From positions 32,001 through 96,000 of IMG/VR virus record IMGVR_UViG_2864522212_000004: a DNA stretch of 64,000 bases. One strand, given 5' to 3'. Below, piece after piece: positions 3,949 to 32,445 of the stretch (the first letter of the stretch is position 1; every line of letters starts with the position of its first letter). A program made the position numbers and the translations under genes. Below the pieces are notes generated by a model. It was given only the letters and a program-made list of their open reading frames with translations. It had not been told where the DNA came from and ran no database searches. This DNA is from a virus. Lineage: Duplodnaviria; Caudoviricetes.

Positions 3949-3957
3949 TGGACTTAT

Positions 3958-4005
3958 CGAATCGCGCCGTAAGACCACAGGCTTCAGTCGTGGGGAGGAA
4001 GTCAA
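3958..4005 (+). mobile_element. 48-bp IS200/IS605 left-end/right-end hybrid (mini element or recombination scar)
   Basis: TTAT|13 nt|AAGA + hairpin CCACAGGCTTCAGTCGTGG + GGAGGAAGTCAA tail like the right end at 16236. Confidence 0.7.
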
Positions 4006-8286: not shown

Positions 8287-8760
8287 ATGGACAAAATCGA
8301 TACTGAAATCCGGTTCGCCGACATGGCGGAGGAACGGTTGCGCCGCGAGGATCCGCACTATCGTGTCTGGTCGTTCACCGATGACGATGATGTGACGGCA
8401 TTGTATCTGGGCCGCGTGGACATGAACGGGGAGCCGGTGGAACGGTACGACCGGACACGTACGATTCTCGCATTCGATGGAGACAGGGTGTTTGCGAAAT
8501 GGCATGGCGGACGCCTGTTCGAGGGCGGCCGCCTTGCCGAAGCGTGGATCGACGTGTTGAGGAGAAATCGGGAAACGAATACCTTGAAAGCCCTGTTGGA
8601 TGACGGATTGGACACGTTGCAGGAACTGTTGGAGGCGATACCGCAGGACAGTCGGCAACTTTCATGCGAGGAGCTGGTGCCACGGCTGCGCAAGGCGTTG
8701 GGTCAGGCGAAGACCTGCGGGAAACTGGAGCAACAAATCAGGGATCTGGAGGAATCATGA
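8287..8760 (+). CDS. Hypothetical protein
   Basis: AAGGA RBS; coupled to ATP-grasp gene. Confidence 0.7.
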   Translation: MDKIDTEIRFADMAEERLRREDPHYRVWSFTDDDDVTALYLGRVDMNGEPVERYDRTRTILAFDGDRVFAKWHGGRLFEGGRLAEAWIDVLRRNRETNTLKALLDDGLDTLQELLEAIPQDSRQLSCEELVPRLRKALGQAKTCGKLEQQIRDLEES

Positions 8761-10181
8761 CCGGCTTTCTCGACCGGCTGCTGCACGCGGATAAGCCGCG
8801 ACCGTTGGACGTGGACACGGCGGCCGCCATGCTCAGGACCACGCCCGGACTATTGCGCGAGTTCGAACGCTCCTACCATGCGAACGTGCTCGACCGGAAG
8901 AATGCGCCCACGGGACCATTGGGTCCGGACGCGAAGACCGTTGTCGAATCCCGTTCCGGACACGGGCTGTCGGACGAGGCGTTGGCGTTGGATGCGCGCA
9001 TCGTGCGCGAACTGCTGTCGGATACAGGCGTCATCCGGTTCGACGGGGAGCGTCTTACGGCGGCCCCCTCATTGGCTCCCGTCCCGGAATCGTATGTGAC
9101 GGAAGCGGACGTGGACGTATTGGAGCCGGGGGAGCGCCCCCAGTTGGCGGGCGAGCTAATCCACCGTCAGATCGATACGGTGAACTATCCGCTCCTGCTC
9201 GACATGTGGCGGCATGCCACGGATCCGAAACGTTCCGCGAGGCAACGGCATGAGGCGTACGGCATGTTCCGCACCGGCCTCGACCTGCTCGACCTGGATC
9301 CGGTCATGTACCGAATGCTCGACATGAACCCGGCGAGCATAGGCCATTGGCTGCCCGCATTGGCCAAGGCGAACGAAGGCAAGACGTTCTTCCGCATCCC
9401 GAAGACCACGATAGCCAAAGCGCCGTTGACCCTGCTGCAATTGTCGCGCGTCGAATACGAGTCGCTGACCGCCGCCACCTTGGATGTGGTGGATCGGTGG
9501 GCGCAGGCCGCGTTCCGCCTGAAACCGGACGAATCTTATTTCCTCAAGACCGGCACGTTCAGCAACAAGTATGATTTCCGCAACGCGCACGTCACCGAAC
9601 CGCACGAGGTCATGCAGATCGGCGAATACCTGTTGTACCTCCAATCCCAAGCGGTCGAAATGGCCGGACCGTTGAGCCAACCTGCCACGTACGGGGTTTC
9701 CACGACGAACGAGATGGTGGTCCGCGAATACATCCCCGATACGCATGACCTGCCGACCATCTACATGGGTCTGCCGTTGCGCTGCGAATACCGGTGCTTC
9801 ATCGACTGCGACACGGATGAGCTGCTGGGCATCCACCCGTACTGGGATCCCGAAGTCATGAACAAACGGTTCCGTGACGCGCCCGACGCCTCCAATCCGC
9901 ACATGCGGCATGATGCGGTCACGTACGCGATGCGCGAACCCTCGTTGATGCGCGAATACGGGGAGTCGAAGGACCTGGTCGCCGCTCATGTCAGGGAGCT
10001 GCTGCCCGGCCTGGGCCTGGCGGGCCAATGGTCGCTTGACATCATGCGCGACGGCGACGATTGCTGGCTCATCGACATGGCGCCCGCCGAACGCAGCACC
10101 TTCTACGAACGGACGGTGCCGAAAGGAAAGCGTCGGCCGATGGTGGAGAACTGGATGCCCGAACTGGAGGGAGAACATTGA
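8757..10181 (+). CDS. ATP-grasp protein, Cdc123/R2K-like
   Basis: FLKTGTFSNKYD, VVREYI, EYRCFI, WSLDI...WLIDM motifs. Confidence 0.7.
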   Translation: MTGFLDRLLHADKPRPLDVDTAAAMLRTTPGLLREFERSYHANVLDRKNAPTGPLGPDAKTVVESRSGHGLSDEALALDARIVRELLSDTGVIRFDGERLTAAPSLAPVPESYVTEADVDVLEPGERPQLAGELIHRQIDTVNYPLLLDMWRHATDPKRSARQRHEAYGMFRTGLDLLDLDPVMYRMLDMNPASIGHWLPALAKANEGKTFFRIPKTTIAKAPLTLLQLSRVEYESLTAATLDVVDRWAQAAFRLKPDESYFLKTGTFSNKYDFRNAHVTEPHEVMQIGEYLLYLQSQAVEMAGPLSQPATYGVSTTNEMVVREYIPDTHDLPTIYMGLPLRCEYRCFIDCDTDELLGIHPYWDPEVMNKRFRDAPDASNPHMRHDAVTYAMREPSLMREYGESKDLVAAHVRELLPGLGLAGQWSLDIMRDGDDCWLIDMAPAERSTFYERTVPKGKRRPMVENWMPELEGEH

Positions 10182-10182
10182 C

Positions 10183-11791
10183 CGGTTTGGCGGCGCAAGC
10201 CCCGTCTTTTAAGGCTGGGGTAAGCCGCTACTTCTTTGATTAGTCACTGTTTCCGTGGTAAGGTTTATAGTATGAGTCAGAAGGTACGAATCATCAAAGT
10301 CAGGCATGCGGGCGCATCCGTGTACCTTGGCGACGATTCATGCCGCAACCACTGTTGGACGCGCAATCCCGAACGTATCATGGACTGGCTGTGCGATGGT
10401 TGGCGTACCCGTTTCAACCAGCATCGGGGGCATCGGACTGTCCGCCGTTACATGGAGGATATGGAGTCCCATGAGCGCATGTGGGTGGACGTTCCCTTGG
10501 GTGGAGCGACCGTCGGGGAGCCTTTCAAGGACAGCGAGGCCCGAACCCGGTGTTCTTGGCTCGCATGCATCCCCGCCGCCGTTCTCGCCAGCCCCATGCG
10601 CGTGGAGAATTCGGAATGGTATGCCGGATTGAAGCGCAAGAAGATTAATGGCGGTCGTATTCCGGGGTTCAAATCCCGCAAACGCGACCCCCAGTATTTC
10701 GTATGCTGGCGCAACCAGACCAAGACCGGCAACGCCGTCTACCATCAGGTGTCACGCAAGCGTGGCGTGGTCGTCATCACCGGAAGCGTGAAAAAGGAGT
10801 TCCGCAAGCCGGGCGAAACGGGATGCCGTTGGAGGCTCTCCATCCACGTGCGCGTCAGCCAACCCGTCAGGGATTACACGAGCGTGGCGGTGAATTGGAC
10901 GGAACGCACTCTGGCGTTCACCAACGAACCGTCGCCCATCCGACGGAATGCCACTGGCAAGCAGACCGGTATCGACCGTGGCTGCGTACACACATTGGCC
11001 TTGTCGAATGGAACCATGCTGGACATGCCGCAACCGTCCGAACGGGAGAAGCGCGAGTATCTGCGTCTGCAACGCAAGCTCGCCCGACAAGACATGACCA
11101 ACAGCCGACGTGGTGGGAAAACCGCGAAATTCCAGTCGAAACGACGCAAACTCACATTGAAGCGCATGAGTTCGATACGCCGCCGAGTCAACAACCGCAA
11201 GGACGATTGGGTTGCGAAGACCACGACCCGACTGGTCGAAGACTACGACCTCATCGCCTTGGAAGCGTTGGACACCCGGCAAATGACCCGCAAGCCGAAA
11301 CCGAAACAGGACCCCAACCATAGGGGACGCTACCTGCGCAACGGCTCGGCGGCCAAAGCGGGATTGAACCGCAGCATCCTCGGCAACCGTTGGACGGATA
11401 TCCAGAACAAACTCGAATACAAGACCCGTCTCGCCGGGACCCGGCTCATACTGGTCAACCCGGCGTACACGTCCCAGACCTGCAACCGTTGCGGCCATGT
11501 CGCATTGGAGAACCGTGAGAGCCAAGCGGTCTTCCAATGCGTCAACTGCGGTTTCAAGGCTAATGCGGACATCAACGCGGCCAAGAACATCCTCGACCGC
11601 GCGATACACACACAACCGGCATGGACGATGCCGAGGGCGTGGAGGGACACGCTTCCCGCGAAACCTGTGTTTCACGGGAAGGTTCCGTTGAAACGCCAAC
11701 CCCTGCCACACATGTGGGAAGACTCTCCGAATAGGGGATTGTCTCACATGCGACAGGAATCCCCCGGCTTTAGCCGTGGGGAGGGAGTCAA
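10183..11791 (+). mobile_element. IS200/IS605-family element, tnpB only (1609 bp), target TGAC
   Basis: LE: TGAC|13 nt|CAAG + hairpin; RE: GAAT + hairpin CCCCCGGCTTTAGCCGTGGGG ...TCAA; removal restores TTG ACC GGC TGG of the downstream gene. Confidence 0.9.
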
Positions 11792-12836
11792 CGGCTGGCT
11801 TATCGACATCATCCCCGAGGAATGCCCGCCCGACGTGATGGACGCGCCGGAAGCGTATCGCGCCGCATGGGGACGATACGTCGGCGAGGTTGTGCCGGGC
11901 GACGGGGATCCGGAGGATTGGCGCGAACAGGCGGCGCGCCTGGAGGCCGCGGCACGTATCCTCCCGGACCCGCATGTGCGCGTGGCCGGCCGATCGTACG
12001 GGGGGCCTGACCCGATGACGCTCGCCCATTACGGCGTGGTAAGAATCAGGCCGTATATGGATCAGCTGACGTTGCCCGCCTCGAACGTCGACCGGTGGGA
12101 TCTCATCCCCGCGTTGCGCCCGTTTCTGGGACGCGACGTGCAATCCGTCCCCTGCGACGGGGATGCGATCGATGTGGCGGCGCGGGGCATGCTCGACCGG
12201 CATCCCGGTGCGGGTGTGGTCGTCAAGTTCATGCTGCGTGAGAAGCGTCTGCCGCTCGCGTTCATCGACCCGGACGGCACGTTCGAACAGTCGGACGAGT
12301 ATGGCGGGAAGCCGGAGCGTATCCCGTTCGCCGCATGGCGGTGGGCCGGCTATGACCTCGCCCTGTTCGAGGGCGAGCCGGACGCGGCGCTCGTCCAGCA
12401 GCGGGTGCGCATGCGCTACGAGTACCGGGTGCAGGTGATCGGCGGGGAACCGGTATGCGGGGCCGGCTGCATCGAACGGTTCACGCCCGCCGACAACACG
12501 GGCGAACGGTATGATCCGCGGATGGAGGAAACACGCAACGACGGGCGCATCGAATCGCACCCCGACATCGCACGGTTGTATGAGGCGTTCGCACTCGAGG
12601 CGGCGCATGCGATACGCGGCGAAGTCGAAGGCCCATACGTGATGGACCTGTATCTGGATGATGCCGGGCAGCCGCATGTGATCGAACTCAACCCGCAGTC
12701 GAACAGCGGCCTGTATGCGCTCGACATGGACGCATTGCTGACGGCGATACGGGACAATCCGGAGCAGTTCATGCCCGACCCGTCGCGGAGCGGCATGCCC
12801 GGCTGCCTGGGCGTCAGGGAGGAGAGTGTGGTTTGA
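10272..12836 (+). CDS. tnpB: In-frame fusion: TnpB RNA-guided nuclease (10272-11791) + ATP-grasp DUF4343/R2K-like protein (11792-12836)
   Basis: RuvC GIDRG / IALE / NADINAA and CxxC-CxxC intact; no stop before RE; then EYRVQV...YVMDL...IELNPQSNSGLY. Confidence 0.85.
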   Translation: MSQKVRIIKVRHAGASVYLGDDSCRNHCWTRNPERIMDWLCDGWRTRFNQHRGHRTVRRYMEDMESHERMWVDVPLGGATVGEPFKDSEARTRCSWLACIPAAVLASPMRVENSEWYAGLKRKKINGGRIPGFKSRKRDPQYFVCWRNQTKTGNAVYHQVSRKRGVVVITGSVKKEFRKPGETGCRWRLSIHVRVSQPVRDYTSVAVNWTERTLAFTNEPSPIRRNATGKQTGIDRGCVHTLALSNGTMLDMPQPSEREKREYLRLQRKLARQDMTNSRRGGKTAKFQSKRRKLTLKRMSSIRRRVNNRKDDWVAKTTTRLVEDYDLIALEALDTRQMTRKPKPKQDPNHRGRYLRNGSAAKAGLNRSILGNRWTDIQNKLEYKTRLAGTRLILVNPAYTSQTCNRCGHVALENRESQAVFQCVNCGFKANADINAAKNILDRAIHTQPAWTMPRAWRDTLPAKPVFHGKVPLKRQPLPHMWEDSPNRGLSHMRQESPGFSRGEGVNGWLIDIIPEECPPDVMDAPEAYRAAWGRYVGEVVPGDGDPEDWREQAARLEAAARILPDPHVRVAGRSYGGPDPMTLAHYGVVRIRPYMDQLTLPASNVDRWDLIPALRPFLGRDVQSVPCDGDAIDVAARGMLDRHPGAGVVVKFMLREKRLPLAFIDPDGTFEQSDEYGGKPERIPFAAWRWAGYDLALFEGEPDAALVQQRVRMRYEYRVQVIGGEPVCGAGCIERFTPADNTGERYDPRMEETRNDGRIESHPDIARLYEAFALEAAHAIRGEVEGPYVMDLYLDDAGQPHVIELNPQSNSGLYALDMDALLTAIRDNPEQFMPDPSRSGMPGCLGVREESVV

Positions 12837-12930
12837 TGACGCATCCAGAACCGAAGCGGGCTCAGCTCCTCTCAGAGGACCCGTCTGCGTCCCATCGGCT
12901 CATACCTTTGACGGCGAAAGGAAAACAGGA

Positions 12931-13132
12931 ATGGCTGAACGGAACATGAACGACGATTTCGTCTATCGCAACCAGGTCGGCACGGCCATCGACCAGCTGC
13001 GCCTCGCCTTGAAAACGGCGGATACGGGGGCGGATCCGGCTGCTGAACGGCGCTTTGCAGAACACGGGCAATGCGATCGGGCAGCTCGCCCAATTCAACG
13101 CGGACGGCACGCGGCGGCCCCCACGAGAATAG
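12931..13132 (+). pseudogene. Small gene, probably frameshifted
   Basis: MAERNMNDDFVYRNQ... continues more naturally in a shifted frame (RIRLLNGALQNTGNAIGQLAQFNADG...). Confidence 0.35.
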
Positions 13133-13153: not shown

Positions 13154-13582
13154 ATGGGGATAATGCTTGATTCCATCCGCTACCGGCTGTACGCCGTCGA
13201 ATCCGAAACATCTGAACCGTCCGGCACGACGGCCCGCATCAAGCTCGAATATCGTGCCGGGAACATCACGTACGGGCTGGAACTGCGGGAACCGTTCGGA
13301 CCGGGCATCGTCGCCGACGAGGCGCGTTCGTTCGATCCCGGCAAGCCGATGGCGATGCCGCCAGTCTGGCTGCTCGTCCGCGGGGACGCGACGCCCGAAC
13401 GCGGATTGCGATGCCTGACCCTGGCCGTCACCATGCTGGATGGCGTGGATGCGGACGGGAACGTGCATGCGGGGGTCGAGGTCTCATATCCGTGCGGCCT
13501 TCCCGAGGATGCGCTGAACGGCGCCCGGTTCGCCCTGTGGGTGCTGCGCGATCTGCTGGATGGAGGAAGCCAAGAATGCTAG
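13154..13582 (+). CDS. Hypothetical protein
   Basis: ORF track, GC3-rich coding. Confidence 0.6.
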   Translation: MGIMLDSIRYRLYAVESETSEPSGTTARIKLEYRAGNITYGLELREPFGPGIVADEARSFDPGKPMAMPPVWLLVRGDATPERGLRCLTLAVTMLDGVDADGNVHAGVEVSYPCGLPEDALNGARFALWVLRDLLDGGSQEC

Positions 13583-14070
13583 ACGAGATGCTTGCCCGCG
13601 AGCTTGAGGAACATTCGTTCTGATTCCGGAATGTGCTGGAAACCGTTGTTCTCGTAGAATCTAGCTGCGGCTGAATCCACGGGATCCACTATGAGGGCCC
13701 TCGCCCCGAGTTCGGAGCTGATGTTCAAGGAACGTATGACCGCATCGTGCAACAGTTTCCTGCCGAGGCCTTCGCCTTGGAAACGTCTGTCCACGCCGAG
13801 CATGCCGAGCAGTATCATGGGCACTCGCTCGGGAACGTTCCTCTGTAGCCATCCGCCGGCGATATTGGAGCGTTCCATTGCGTGTGCGCTGAGGGAGTAG
13901 AATCCGGCGAGTTCCCCTGATTCGGCGTAGGTGACGTACGCGACGGCCGTTCCCTGTTTTTCGGCAGAACGGGATCTCGTGGACAGCCATTCATCAATGA
14001 GCGTAATGCCGCAGTCAAAGCCATCGAGCATGTCGGAGGACTCTATGCGCCGTGGTGTGGTGAATCTCAT
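13579..14070 (-). CDS. GNAT-family toxin (TacT/AtaT-like)
   Basis: FDCG..LxxWL, GFYSLSA, LGVDRRFQGEGLG acetyl-CoA motif, FYENNGF. Confidence 0.9.
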   Translation of the reverse strand: MRFTTPRRIESSDMLDGFDCGITLIDEWLSTRSRSAEKQGTAVAYVTYAESGELAGFYSLSAHAMERSNIAGGWLQRNVPERVPMILLGMLGVDRRFQGEGLGRKLLHDAVIRSLNISSELGARALIVDPVDSAAARFYENNGFQHIPESERMFLKLAGKHLV

Positions 14071-14345
14071 ATCCAGTCGGGTTCCATTTCGATGAGATCC
14101 TTCGCGGCCTTCGGCATGGGTCTGTCAAGCGCCTTGAGAAATTCGTCGAATGCCTTGGAGGGCAGACGGGTGACGGTCTCCTCTTCGATATCCCGGCGTG
14201 CGTCGGTGACGAGATGGTCGATGGCCCATTGGGTTATGGAGGAGCCTTTGAGAGAGGCCGCTATATCTATGGTTTGGCGCTGTTCTGGCGTGAGGCGCAT
14301 GTTGAGGCGTGAGCTGCGTGCCGGTTCCGTAATAGTGCTTGTCAT
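14067..14345 (-). CDS. DUF1778 RHH antitoxin (TacA-like)
   Basis: RLNMRLTPEQR..I..AA...FDEFLKALDRP; coupled to GNAT. Confidence 0.9.
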   Translation of the reverse strand: MTSTITEPARSSRLNMRLTPEQRQTIDIAASLKGSSITQWAIDHLVTDARRDIEEETVTRLPSKAFDEFLKALDRPMPKAAKDLIEMEPDWI

Positions 14346-14375: not shown

Positions 14376-14498
14376 TATCAATACATTGGATACGCAATAA
14401 CATCAAAGACTATTCATTTGTTCTTTGTATAGTTGGCTATCGTTTTCTGGCGTGAGGACGCCGGCCTTTAGGCCGGTGGTGAAACGCCTTTACCTTTG

Positions 14499-14915
14499 TC
14501 ATGCTGGTCGGTTCTGGTTTTCGATGTATCGTCTCAACGTGTCGAGCGGGGCACCTCCGGCGGTTCCCGCGTAGTAGCTTCCGCTCCATAGCCGTTTCGC
14601 CCGCCAGTAATGTTGGGCGAGTTCGGGGTAGTCGCGTCTCATGTACCGGCTTGACACTCCCTTCAGCGAGTTGACGAGTCGGCTGACCTCCACGGTCGGC
14701 GGGAACGAAACGAGCAGGTGGACATGATCCGTTTCCCCATTGAATTCCTCGAGCCGGCAGTCGAAGCTTTCGCATACGTCGCGGAATATCCGTTCGAGCC
14801 TGTCCAGATGCCGGTCCTCGAACACCTTGTGCCGGTATTTCGTGACGAAAACCAAATGCACATGCATGTCGAAGACACAGTGTCTTCCTTTACGTAGCGA
14901 GTCATCGTTTGTCAT
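14499..14915 (-). CDS. tnpA: IS200/IS605 Y1 (HUH) transposase
   Basis: HLVFVTKYR, DHVHLL (HUH), LKGVSSR, YIENQ. Confidence 0.95.
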   Translation of the reverse strand: MTNDDSLRKGRHCVFDMHVHLVFVTKYRHKVFEDRHLDRLERIFRDVCESFDCRLEEFNGETDHVHLLVSFPPTVEVSRLVNSLKGVSSRYMRRDYPELAQHYWRAKRLWSGSYYAGTAGGAPLDTLRRYIENQNRPA

Positions 14916-14937
14916 GAAACCAAGTATAATTAAAGGT

Positions 14938-16188
14938 ATGGCGTCCATCAAGCGATACAGGTATCGCGCCTATCCGACCAAGGGCCAGGCGCATGCCCTG
15001 TCATGCCTATATGGATGCTGCCGGTTCGTGTATAACCGGTTCGTCGCCGTCCGCGAGACCATGTTCAAGGTCGGAGGCAGGATGCCCACGTTCACCCAGT
15101 TGGCGAGGGACCTGACGCAGTCGAAGAATGATCCGGACACCAGTTGGCTGAAAACCGTGTCCGCCGTCCCGCTCCAGCAGTCTCTGAGGCATGCGCGGAC
15201 CGCGTACGACAACTACTTCGCCTGGAAGAAAGGCGACAGAAAAGGCCCCGAGGTCGGCAAGCCCACGTTCAAGACCCGGCGCGGCACCCAGTCGGCCGAG
15301 TTCACCCTCAACAGCCGGTTCAAGCTCGAACACGAGCCTGGATGCAAATGGGCGTTCCTCACCCTGCCTAAGGTCGGACGCGTCAAACTGCGTTGGACTC
15401 GAGACCTGCCCACCGTGCCGAAGACCGTGACCGTCATCCGACGCCCATGCGGACGATACGAGGCCAGCTTCACCACTATCACGACGTCACGCATCACCCC
15501 CAAGGCACTGCACGCCGAGGCGGGTGTGGACATCGGACTGCTCTCCCTGGGCGTAGTCAGGCGTTCGGACGGCACCTGCGAGGCCATTGAAAATCCTAGG
15601 TTCCTGAAGAACAGCGAACGCAGGCTTAGACACCTGGACCGGGAGCTGGCCCGGAAGAGGAAAGGATCGCGCAACTACGAGAAGGCCCGCACCCGCCGTG
15701 CGCGCGCATACCAGAAGGTCAAGGACACCAGGCTCGACTATCTGACGAAGACCGCCAGAAGGCTCATCGACGAAAACCAAGCGATAGCCCTCGAAACGCT
15801 CTCCATCACCGGCCTAGCCAAGACCCGACTCGGCAAAAGCGTGCTCGACGCGGGATGGGGCACCCTCATCCGGCTTGTCACCCAGATGGGCCGGGAGGCG
15901 GGTCGTGACATCCGCAGGATCAGCCGCTGGTACGCCAGCACGCAGACCTGCTGTGTATGCCACGTCAAGGACAAGCCCAAACCGTTGAACATACGCGAAT
16001 GGGATTGCCCCAACTGCGGCGCACGCCTCGACAGGGACGCGAACGCCGCGGTCAACATTATGCTCGCCGCCGGACTGGCGGAGAGTCTAAACGCCTGTGG
16101 AGGGGACGTAAATCGGAAGCTGGCAATGCCGGCCGCAACGTCGACCCCGATGAAACAGGAACCCTCCGAAACGATTCCCCTCCATTAA
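14938..16188 (+). CDS. tnpB: TnpB RNA-guided nuclease
   Basis: YRYRAYPT HTH; GVDIG / IALE / DRDANAA; Zn finger. Confidence 0.95.
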   Translation: MASIKRYRYRAYPTKGQAHALSCLYGCCRFVYNRFVAVRETMFKVGGRMPTFTQLARDLTQSKNDPDTSWLKTVSAVPLQQSLRHARTAYDNYFAWKKGDRKGPEVGKPTFKTRRGTQSAEFTLNSRFKLEHEPGCKWAFLTLPKVGRVKLRWTRDLPTVPKTVTVIRRPCGRYEASFTTITTSRITPKALHAEAGVDIGLLSLGVVRRSDGTCEAIENPRFLKNSERRLRHLDRELARKRKGSRNYEKARTRRARAYQKVKDTRLDYLTKTARRLIDENQAIALETLSITGLAKTRLGKSVLDAGWGTLIRLVTQMGREAGRDIRRISRWYASTQTCCVCHVKDKPKPLNIREWDCPNCGARLDRDANAAVNIMLAAGLAESLNACGGDVNRKLAMPAATSTPMKQEPSETIPLH

Positions 16189-16236
16189 GGGGAACGTCGT
16201 AGGAATCCTCTGCCTTCAGGCAGAGGAGGAAGTCAA

Positions 16237-16641
16237 ACCAGCCCCGATCCGAACGGACTGGCGTTCGCGGTCATCGAATCGCGTATGTTCATTGTCTGGC
16301 AGGCGGCGGTCGGCGGACGACTGAAATCAGACTACCGTTTCAGCAACACGGTGGTTTGGAACAACCTGCCCCTGCCCGCCCTCGACGATGAAACCCGCAC
16401 CGCATTGATCGAGGCCGGCAGAAACGTGCTGGTGGCGCGAGCCAACCATCCCGGCCAGTCCCTGGCAGACCTGTACGATCCCGACTACATGCCGACCGAC
16501 CTACGCGCCGCCCACCGGGAATTGGACAAGGTTGCGGACGTGGCGTTTGGCGCGAGGAAATGGTTGAAGGACGATGATGATGCGCGTCTGCAAGTGTTGT
16601 TTAAGTCATACACGCATATGACAGGTAGCAGTGAGGTGTGA
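16237..16641 (+). pseudogene. 3' remnant of MmeI-like Type IIL restriction-modification gene
   Basis: GGRLKSDYRFSNTVVWNNLP...SLADLYDPDYMP.DLRAAH..LD; 5' part absent, begins at the IS right end. Confidence 0.85.
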
Positions 16642-31680: not shown

Positions 31681-32445
31681 TCAGCCAAGAAGAGGCACTG
31701 GATAGAATCCGCTCTCCGAATACATGAGCAGAGACCCGTCGCCGATGGGAGTACCGTTGCTCATCGTGGAGAAAGTGTCGCAGAACCACGCATCATGCTC
31801 AAGCAATACAGTCGGAACAGGCGTATGCCCGACCACCTGAGTCAGGTGCATGTCCCCGTCTTCGGCGAACTCGCCGCGATCGCACCATAGGGGAGAAGGC
31901 GTTCCTGCGCCGCCGCGCGCCGGGCCGATGTCCGTCATGGGCACGACCAGTGAGGCCGGATGGAGGAGCATTCGGTTCAAGCGATCCGCGACTTCCTCGA
32001 CCGGCATGTCCATGTAATCGGCGCCCAGCCGCCGTCGCCCCCATGCACGGGTGAGCCCGGCGTGCGTGGCCAGAATGTTCCCATCCGACCAAGCCAGTTG
32101 GAATGGGATATTTTGCATCAGCTCATGCACCTTGCGATGGGCGCCGGGTTTGAAGCCGGGCGCCAGTGCGCGCACTCGCGCATAGGAGGAGGAGCCTTGC
32201 TTCAGGAAGTACGGCACATCGTGGTTGCCGAGCAGTGGAATCACCTCACGTTCCCCGGCTTCGCGCCGATACCATGAGGTGAACGTCTCGAAGAACCGGA
32301 TCAGTCCATTGTTGGACACGTTCCAGTCGTCGCATACATCGCCCAACAGGACCATACGGTCAGTGTTCTCGCGTTGCGCCACCCGGCTGATCAAAGGTAG
32401 CAGGTCGGCTTTTGCATGCAGGTCGCCGACGAACAATGTACGCAT
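31681..32445 (-). CDS. Calcineurin-like metallophosphoesterase
   Basis: GDLH, GDVCD, GNHD, HAG, GHT motifs; AGGGAG RBS. Confidence 0.92.
   Translation of the reverse strand: MRTLFVGDLHAKADLLPLISRVAQRENTDRMVLLGDVCDDWNVSNNGLIRFFETFTSWYRREAGEREVIPLLGNHDVPYFLKQGSSSYARVRALAPGFKPGAHRKVHELMQNIPFQLAWSDGNILATHAGLTRAWGRRRLGADYMDMPVEEVADRLNRMLLHPASLVVPMTDIGPARGGAGTPSPLWCDRGEFAEDGDMHLTQVVGHTPVPTVLLEHDAWFCDTFSTMSNGTPIGDGSLLMYSESGFYPVPLLG

Follow-up and report, generated by a model that had tools for sequence, protein, structure and literature searches.

A tnpB-only IS200/IS605-family element in an ATP-grasp gene of a bifidobacterial megaplasmid family, and a private frameshift that joins the two reading frames

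Comparison with described TnpB elements

The IS200/IS605-family insertion sequences (ISs) IS608, from Helicobacter pylori, and ISDra2, from Deinococcus radiodurans, carry subterminal imperfect hairpins with a bulged T and guide tetranucleotides 5' of the hairpin feet. They have no inverted repeats, insert 3' of a motif of 4-5 nucleotides (nt) without duplicating the target, and encode a TnpB protein with a RuvC D-E-D triad and a zinc finger, overlapped at the 3' end of its gene by an omegaRNA (PMC8612924). We analysed a 64,000-nt stretch of DNA (the window; positions 32,001 to 96,000 of IMG/VR record IMGVR_UViG_2864522212_000004) in which a 1609-bp element of this type, at 10183..11791 on the plus strand, interrupts the gene for an R2K-type ATP-grasp protein. 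The element shares all of these features, its omegaRNA being a prediction, and judged by its sequence it is an unreported member of the known IS200/IS605 TnpB family. In the window copy the tnpB reading frame runs on into the ATP-grasp gene. We consider it likely that this is an ordinary non-autonomous TnpB IS in a dispensable plasmid gene, to which a recent and fortuitous frameshift has been added in a single plasmid lineage.

The right end is laid out exactly as in IS608, with TCAA lying 10 nt after the hairpin foot and GAAT as its guide (PMC3201880). The left end differs, with the guide CAAG and a 17-nt spacer in place of AAAG and 19 nt. Unlike both IS608 and ISDra2, the focal element is without tnpA, and its transposon-associated motif (TAM) is TTGAC rather than TTAC or TTGAT. 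Its TnpB family is also longer than that of ISDra2, at 486 amino acids (aa) against 408 aa, and neither described element has the frameshifted tail, fused to a host gene, that is seen in the window copy.

The element also resembles ISGst of Geobacillus stearothermophilus (Meers et al., 10.1101/2023.03.14.532601), in which tnpB and the omegaRNA likewise lie between the ends and many copies share those ends. As with ISGst-type tnpB-only elements, TnpA would be supplied in trans and the guide would be the flank after the right end, so that cutting of empty donor sites, leading to retention or homing, would be expected. Unlike ISGst, the focal element belongs to a conjugative megaplasmid family, is known from sequence alone, and has one site in common with a second, 69%-identical lineage.

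Exapted TnpB derivatives, such as TldR and the sigma-factor-associated TnpB proteins (PMC10691335; PMC10705468), offer a further comparison, as there too TnpB is physically linked to a host function. Those derivatives are conserved across species, immobilised and usually nuclease-dead, and are linked as neighbouring genes, whereas the focal copy is a mobile, single-strain frameshift allele with intact catalytic motifs and no conservation. A first-pass annotation of the window, made from its sequence, had suggested that the chimera was of a kind from which domesticated TnpB derivatives could arise. We found no second fusion of TnpB to this ATP-grasp protein, and therefore no sign of domestication: of 17 copies one has the fusion, it is absent from three further runs, and no other long protein joining the two was present among the candidates scored from 5.8 billion proteins. 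Nor does mobility appear to have been lost, as the ends are intact and the element has many mobile relatives.

The locus provides a fully reconstructed example of a TnpB-only IS at an overlapping stop/start junction, and of how a 2-bp slip in a tnpB tail that resembles non-coding sequence can yield a long ORF joining a nuclease to an enzyme. No function should be read from such an open reading frame (ORF) without comparing the other copies of the element. The two active-looking TnpB lineages with TAM TTGAC, found on gut bifidobacterial pMP7017-family megaplasmids, are candidates as compact editors, and the repeatedly occupied site offers a way to probe whether omegaRNAs guide homing when plasmids compete. 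A fusion that was made and active would be a first step towards domestication of TnpB by joining to a host enzyme, and a rare natural starting point for it.

The insertion and the architecture of the element

The first base of the element, 10183, lies directly 3' of TTGAC (10178..10182, plus strand), which is both TAM and left cleavage motif, and its last bases, GTCAA, end at 11791. The TTG of the motif was the ancestral start codon of the ATP-grasp gene and the AC the first two bases of codon 2, which the element splits (AC|C). We found 14 related contigs encoding the ATP-grasp protein. The exact empty site is present in seven related contigs (L003, L005, L007, L010, L011, L014 and L016), where it reads ...GGAGGGAGAACA TTGACC GGCTGGCT(T/C)ATCGAC. 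In contigs of three public runs (X3, X2 and X6, one of which is from another study of the same organism) 10182 is followed directly by 11792. The 1609 bases between them are missing, and the exact joint is ambiguous by 3 bases (CGG). The first-pass annotation had placed the insertion in codon 2, reconstructed an ancestral TTG AC|C GGC TGG CTT, put a 1609-bp tnpB-only element after TGAC and proposed looking for the empty site in sister plasmids. Its reconstruction is identical to the seven empty sites, and the size and ends are upheld by these and by the skip in the three runs, as well as by comparison of the copies.

The insertion point is an overlapping stop/start junction, cATTGAcc, between two plasmid genes. 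The upstream ORF (8664..10181, plus strand; 505 aa) has a C-terminus that appears R2K/ATP-grasp-like by eye, and Pfam gave no match to it. Its TGA stop (10179-10181) forms part of TTGAC and survives the insertion intact. Downstream, the rest of the R2K-clade ATP-grasp gene (11793..12836, plus strand; 347 codons and a stop) is 98.7% identical in nucleotides to the uninterrupted copy in L003, and the TTG start and strong GGAGG that served it are now on the far side of the IS. The match to R2K_3, at residues 702-826 of the predicted fusion, is marginal (29.9 bits against a gathering threshold of 26.3) and that to R2K_2 (20.8 bits) is under its cut-off. The protein search also returned three other rearranged ATP-grasp alleles (P0004-P0006), in which the ORF is fused to the downstream AAA ATPase, to the upstream R2K-like gene and to an MmeI-like restriction-modification enzyme.

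A 4.2-kb stretch around the insertion matches only pMP7017-family megaplasmids of Bifidobacterium longum and B. breve (PLSDB 6/6, rep_cluster_329). IMG/VR classes the whole 136-kb record from which the window is taken as a provirus. As the studied region matches only these conjugative Bifidobacterium megaplasmids, the 'viral' label of the record, and of the related UViG (uncultivated virus genome) contigs, is doubtful.

The left end (10183..10232, plus strand) consists of a 17-nt spacer, the guide CAAG at 10196-10199 and an imperfect hairpin at about 10200-10220. The right end (11757..11791, plus strand) consists of the guide GAAT at 11757-11760, a hairpin at 11761-11781 and a 10-nt tail, AGGGAGTCAA, ending in TCAA. 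DNA folds of 10178-10232 and 11750-11791 gave one bulged T in each hairpin, and the right-end hairpin has 4 compensatory pairs between the two element lineages. On the left, CAAG immediately precedes the hairpin foot and is 17 nt from the cleavage site; on the right, GAAT precedes the foot, with the end of TCAA 10 nt beyond it. That the ends would follow the IS608/ISDra2 guide rule had been proposed in the first-pass annotation, and these positions agree with the layout of IS608, where TTAC/AAAG are at 19 nt and TCAA at 10 nt (PMC3201880). By analogy, the predicted pairs are CAAG with TGAC at the left end and GAAT with TCAA at the right end; compared with the TTAC/AAAG of IS608, the T-to-G change in the motif is mirrored by an A-to-C change in the guide.

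The ORF list and Pfam showed tnpB to be the sole gene between the ends, with no Y1 (HUH) TnpA in the element, which is therefore a non-autonomous member, like most of the IS200/IS605 family (10.1101/2023.03.14.532601). Besides the window copy we retrieved 15 copies of this lineage (family 1; 79-98% identical), 14 of them full length. The 16 copies occupy about 11 distinct sites, and all 16 have NTGAC on their left (TTGAC 13, GTGAC 2, ATGAC 1), so the TGAC expected from the window copy is found throughout. A second lineage (family 2; nine loci, six distinct sites) is 69% identical to family 1 in nucleotides. Nearly all retrieved copies of both lineages are on contigs resembling the same plasmid family.

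The tnpB core, in its native frame, covers residues 1-445 (10272..11605, plus strand; Pfam, NCBIfam and alignments), and the NCBIfam model guided_TnpB scores 170.6 bits against a cut-off of 100. The RuvC residues D235 (10974-10976), E331 (11262-11264) and D433 (11568-11570) and the zinc-finger cysteines C404/C407/C423/C426 (codons within 11481-11549), all on the plus strand, do not vary across an alignment in which a TnpB of 27% identity is included. In comparisons with Cas12f/TnpB chains of solved structure, the zinc finger and the NADxNAA motif can both be aligned. The D-E-D triad and the zinc finger are thus intact in all seven residues, as first noted.

The region at 11608..11791 (plus strand) is predicted to hold the omegaRNA scaffold and the right end, and is read in the window copy as a 61-residue linker, QPAWTMPRAW...ESPGFSRGEGV. 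Over the last ~230 nt there is a consensus structure of 44 pairs, with 96.6% of cells paired and compensatory change at 16 pairs, against 0-2 compensatory pairs in slid controls. This is the appearance that would be expected of an omegaRNA overlapping the tnpB tail. As the 'linker' carries conserved RNA structure with these 16 compensatory pairs, it is not under coding constraint. No Rfam family matches the omegaRNA region of the focal element.

The predicted guide, and target, is CGGCTGGCTTATCGAC (11792..11807, plus strand), which begins at 11792, the final base of the codon 2 that the insertion split. These 16 nt, with TTGAC before them, are identical to the empty sites of L003, L005, L010 and L016, which agrees with the earlier proposal that the guide would be the first bases of the ATP-grasp gene. 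Their role as a guide would follow from what is known of the family (PMC8612924; 10.1101/2023.03.14.532601). On the same analogy, TnpA supplied in trans would carry out transposition, the omegaRNA would come from the 3' region, and TnpB would cleave empty TTGAC+CGGCTGGCTTATCGAC sites.

The private frameshift and the long reading frame

When the full-length copies were aligned, just one indel proved to be confined to the window copy: two additional bases, AC, at 11606..11607 (plus strand) in an (AC)n run, giving GATACACACACAACC against GATACACACAACC elsewhere. The AC is absent from the 14 other full-length copies, from the 5'-truncated L039, from L042 and from the copies in runs X2, X3 and X6. 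The resulting +2 shift bypasses the native-frame stop, TAG 11732-11734, and so accounts for the missing tnpB stop in the window copy. The shifted frame stays open through the right end (...ESPGFSRGEGV-N) and is continuous with the ATP-grasp GGC TGG CTT, with a predicted junction peptide ...SRGEGVNGWLID....

All 12 other intact copies that were traced encode a TnpB of 485-486 aa, with the C-terminus ...AIHTTGMDDAEGVEG...* and a stop 57-61 nt before the right end. The first-pass statement that tnpB has no stop is therefore correct for the window copy and incorrect for the element. Its caveat that stop-less tnpB tails are not rare fails here, as 0 of the 12 are without their own stop, and a stop-less tnpB can be discarded as a trait of the family. 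Because the native tnpB frame has its own stop, fusion needs a private frameshift on top of the phase of the insertion.

The outcome is a single open frame at 10236..12836 (plus strand), which from ATG 10272, the start common to all homologues, encodes 854 aa. As described in the first-pass annotation, tnpB runs in frame through its right end and the full ATP-grasp ORF, and Pfam recognises domains of both parts in the one protein: OrfB_IS605 at residues 223-340, Cas12f1-like_TNB at 374-440 and R2K_3 ATP-grasp at 702-826. The private changes are 5 synonymous and 3 conservative in the TnpB core and 1 in the ATP-grasp part; with so few, and no other decay, the frameshift looks recent. One other family-1 copy, L037, is also frameshifted, which indicates that indels occur in this element family anyway.

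It had been proposed that read-through preserves the interrupted enzyme and so makes the insertion tolerated. This is contradicted by four other megaplasmids, which have an unfused IS at the site, and by an IS-free relative. An IS occupies the same ATP-grasp TTGAC without fusion in L004/L019, in L042 (the finished plasmid p1 of B. longum DS1566) and in L006/L035. TnpB keeps its own stop in L004/L019 and L042, and in L006/L035 the IS at exactly this position is of family 2 and offers no start codon in the frame that reads out of it. L022 has an unchanged left junction and a right end that abuts ATP-grasp codon ~125, with an adjacent out-of-frame deletion (from 4019 onward), and the IS-free L011 (4001-5043) has an ATP-grasp gene that is frameshifted and stops at codon 33. 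That the gene is unfused, 5'-deleted or frameshifted elsewhere suggests that selection on the enzyme is weak. Judging from these alleles, the ATP-grasp gene is evidently dispensable and the locus plastic.

The sequence of events that we favour would begin with TnpA-mediated single-strand 'peel and paste' transposition of the tnpB-only element to a position directly 3' of TTGAC. The upstream gene would keep its TGA, and the downstream ATP-grasp gene would lose its start codon and Shine-Dalgarno sequence, a loss tolerated because the gene is dispensable. A later 2-bp slippage, from (AC)3 to (AC)4 about 10 codons after the last RuvC motif, would then have placed the tnpB tail in the only frame that stays open across the right end and into the ATP-grasp gene, producing the 854-aa ORF. 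Some observations weigh against this account. The frameshift lies just after the last conserved TnpB motif and leaves both parts whole, which would be equally expected under selection. As the start and the strong GGAGG of the ATP-grasp gene have been lost, the gene would be translated more if fused. X1 is the probable source run; its Logan contig (32.9 kb, depth 36), which contains the AC and has 0 differences and 0 gaps over 9900-13000, may derive from the same reads as the assembly of the record, and is a contig-level check rather than an independent sample.

An alternative that is compatible with a fortuitous frameshift, and that we hold only tentatively, is that the ATP-grasp part is translated mainly by independent initiation, on transcripts leaving the IS, at TTG 11739 or ATG 11748 (plus strand, in frame, inside the right end). 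The long ORF would then be mostly irrelevant. In all same-site family-1 alleles the ATP-grasp frame is already open within the right end, and a start codon adjoins the tnpB stop: a TTG overlaps the TGA in L004, L042 and L022 have ATGA, and for the DS1566 gene the Prokaryotic Genome Annotation Pipeline (PGAP) chose a GTG that lies in the right end, 6 nt beyond the stop of tnpB. Same-frame start codons also abut or overlap the tnpB stop in other family-1 sublineages (ATGA, ATTGA, TGATG, TAAcATG). However, the Shine-Dalgarno-like sequences are weak (in the window AGGGGA, 10 nt upstream of ATG 11748), and a start codon is missing from that frame in L035, whose family-2 element is at the same site. 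For omegaRNA biogenesis, transcripts have to pass through the right end (PMC8612924), and since the guide cannot be made otherwise, coupled translation of the ATP-grasp part is plausible from the layout of the sequence.

It is unlikely that the +2 slip was an adaptive rescue, selected because ribosomes translating tnpB run on into the ATP-grasp gene and restore the enzyme as a fusion, possibly an RNA-guided nuclease-ligase chimera. We think it a little less likely again that a selected rescue gave a stable bifunctional TnpB-ATP-grasp protein. The position of the shift, after all TnpB motifs and with both domains complete, would suit such a rescue, as would the absence of other damage in either part and the loss of the native start and Shine-Dalgarno sequence, which leaves only the weak internal starts at ATG 11748 and TTG 11739. 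Yet the fusion is confined to this one copy, both among the copies and runs compared and in the protein search, while other plasmids keep the insertion unfused, delete the 5' part of the gene or carry it frameshifted, and the L037 copy has a frameshift too. A sequencing or assembly artefact, with a normal 486-aa TnpB in the real plasmid, is very improbable: the indel does fall within a short dinucleotide repeat and all other copies are without the AC, but the X1 contig reproduces the window exactly, at a word depth of 36, and this genome's Logan contigs hold no second full IS copy confusable with the focal one, making an assembly slip, or the error hiding a stop that had been feared at first, unlikely.

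Recurrence at the site and other elements

The same-site copies do not represent one inherited insertion. The IS tree places L019 with L023, which is at a different site (support 100/100), and a clade of the window copy (WIN), L022 and L019 was rejected by the approximately unbiased (AU) test (p = 4e-5). This tree, together with the presence of the 69%-identical second lineage at the same TTGAC, implies at least two independent arrivals. We do not claim a strong insertion hotspot at the ATP-grasp site. With an estimated few hundred TTGAC motifs per plasmid and about 17 site-lineage combinations, it would not be very surprising if one or two coincided. Tolerated TTGAC sites are few; similar patterns would be expected if an old master copy had been precisely excised from some plasmids, or if omegaRNAs guided homing from one plasmid to another. 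Since the predicted guide CGGCTGGCTTATCGAC after TAM TTGAC matches the empty sites exactly, homing or retention through TnpB, as described by Meers et al. (10.1101/2023.03.14.532601), would be mechanistically available.

A further possibility that we considered is a preference of the elements for start codons (NTG+AC), combined with an exit ORF within them. This idea had early support and was then weakened. At 7 of 11 sites the out-reading frame continues without a stop for 50 codons or more; in the other frames this holds in 2 of 22 cases. However, the site in L023 is just after the TGA of an upstream gene and has opposite-strand genes downstream, the H4/H5 site is intergenic, start codons are absent from that frame in family 2, and high GC content produces long spurious ORFs. 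In a weaker form, the idea is that, where insertion has hit an overlapping stop/start junction (A/TTGAC), translation of the downstream gene could continue by way of a family-1 exit ORF.

Family 2 (L006/L035, 2411-4015; L031-L034, L038, L040, L041 and L018) is also tnpB-only and encodes a 472-aa TnpB with 64-65% aa identity to that of family 1. It shares the TAM TTGAC and the right-end tail, GAGGAAGTCAA. The two families are co-resident on several contigs, and in one the identical ATP-grasp site is occupied by family 2. A bin labelled Dysosmobacter segnis contains a distant family-2 copy, L018. The sequence to the left of the family-2 copy in L031 (CGGATAGCCAATAGTTCCTCTTG+TTGAC) is, in reverse complement, the one to the right of the copy in L041 (GTCAA+CAAGAGGAACTATTGGCTATCCG), so that the element is in opposite orientations against the same host sequence; the other flanks differ. 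Inversion or recombination at the TTGAC/GTCAA palindrome could have produced this arrangement.

Searches of genome contigs gave no match with the ATP-grasp query, and two distant copies and nothing else with the TnpB query. PLSDB gave no match to the right flanks of L025 and L037. The pMP7017 transcriptome paper mentions neither the ATP-grasp gene nor the transposases, and RNA runs X15-X20 contain a small share (0.17) of the words.

A second IS200/IS605 element, autonomous in appearance, lies at 14441-16236. It encodes a TnpA (14499-14951, minus strand; Y1_Tnp match) and, on the plus strand at about 14740-16188, a 27%-identical TnpB with a helix-turn-helix domain. Its right end, ending at 16236, consists of GGAAT, a perfect hairpin and then AGGAAGTCAA. 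The TnpA, 2.7 kb from the focal element and the only one seen near it, is a candidate helper in trans. Weak Rfam matches to HgcC and RAGATH-18 at 16094-16249 fall within the omegaRNA region of this second IS, and were ruled out as belonging to the omegaRNA of the focal element.

A minus-strand gene pair at 13579-14345, between the ATP-grasp locus and the second IS, encodes a GNAT-type toxin (TacT-like acetyltransferase) and a TacA-like antitoxin. We also found two gene-less IS200/IS605 remnants, both with the right-end design of the focal element. One is a mini element of ~110 bp in L002 (G000:C1 ~13155-13260, outside the window), which is PATE-like, has a left and a right hairpin, and ends in GGAGGACGTCAA. 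The other, at 3954-4005 in the window, is a 48-bp scar, ...GGCTTCAGTCGTGGGGAGGAAGTCAA, after TTAT.

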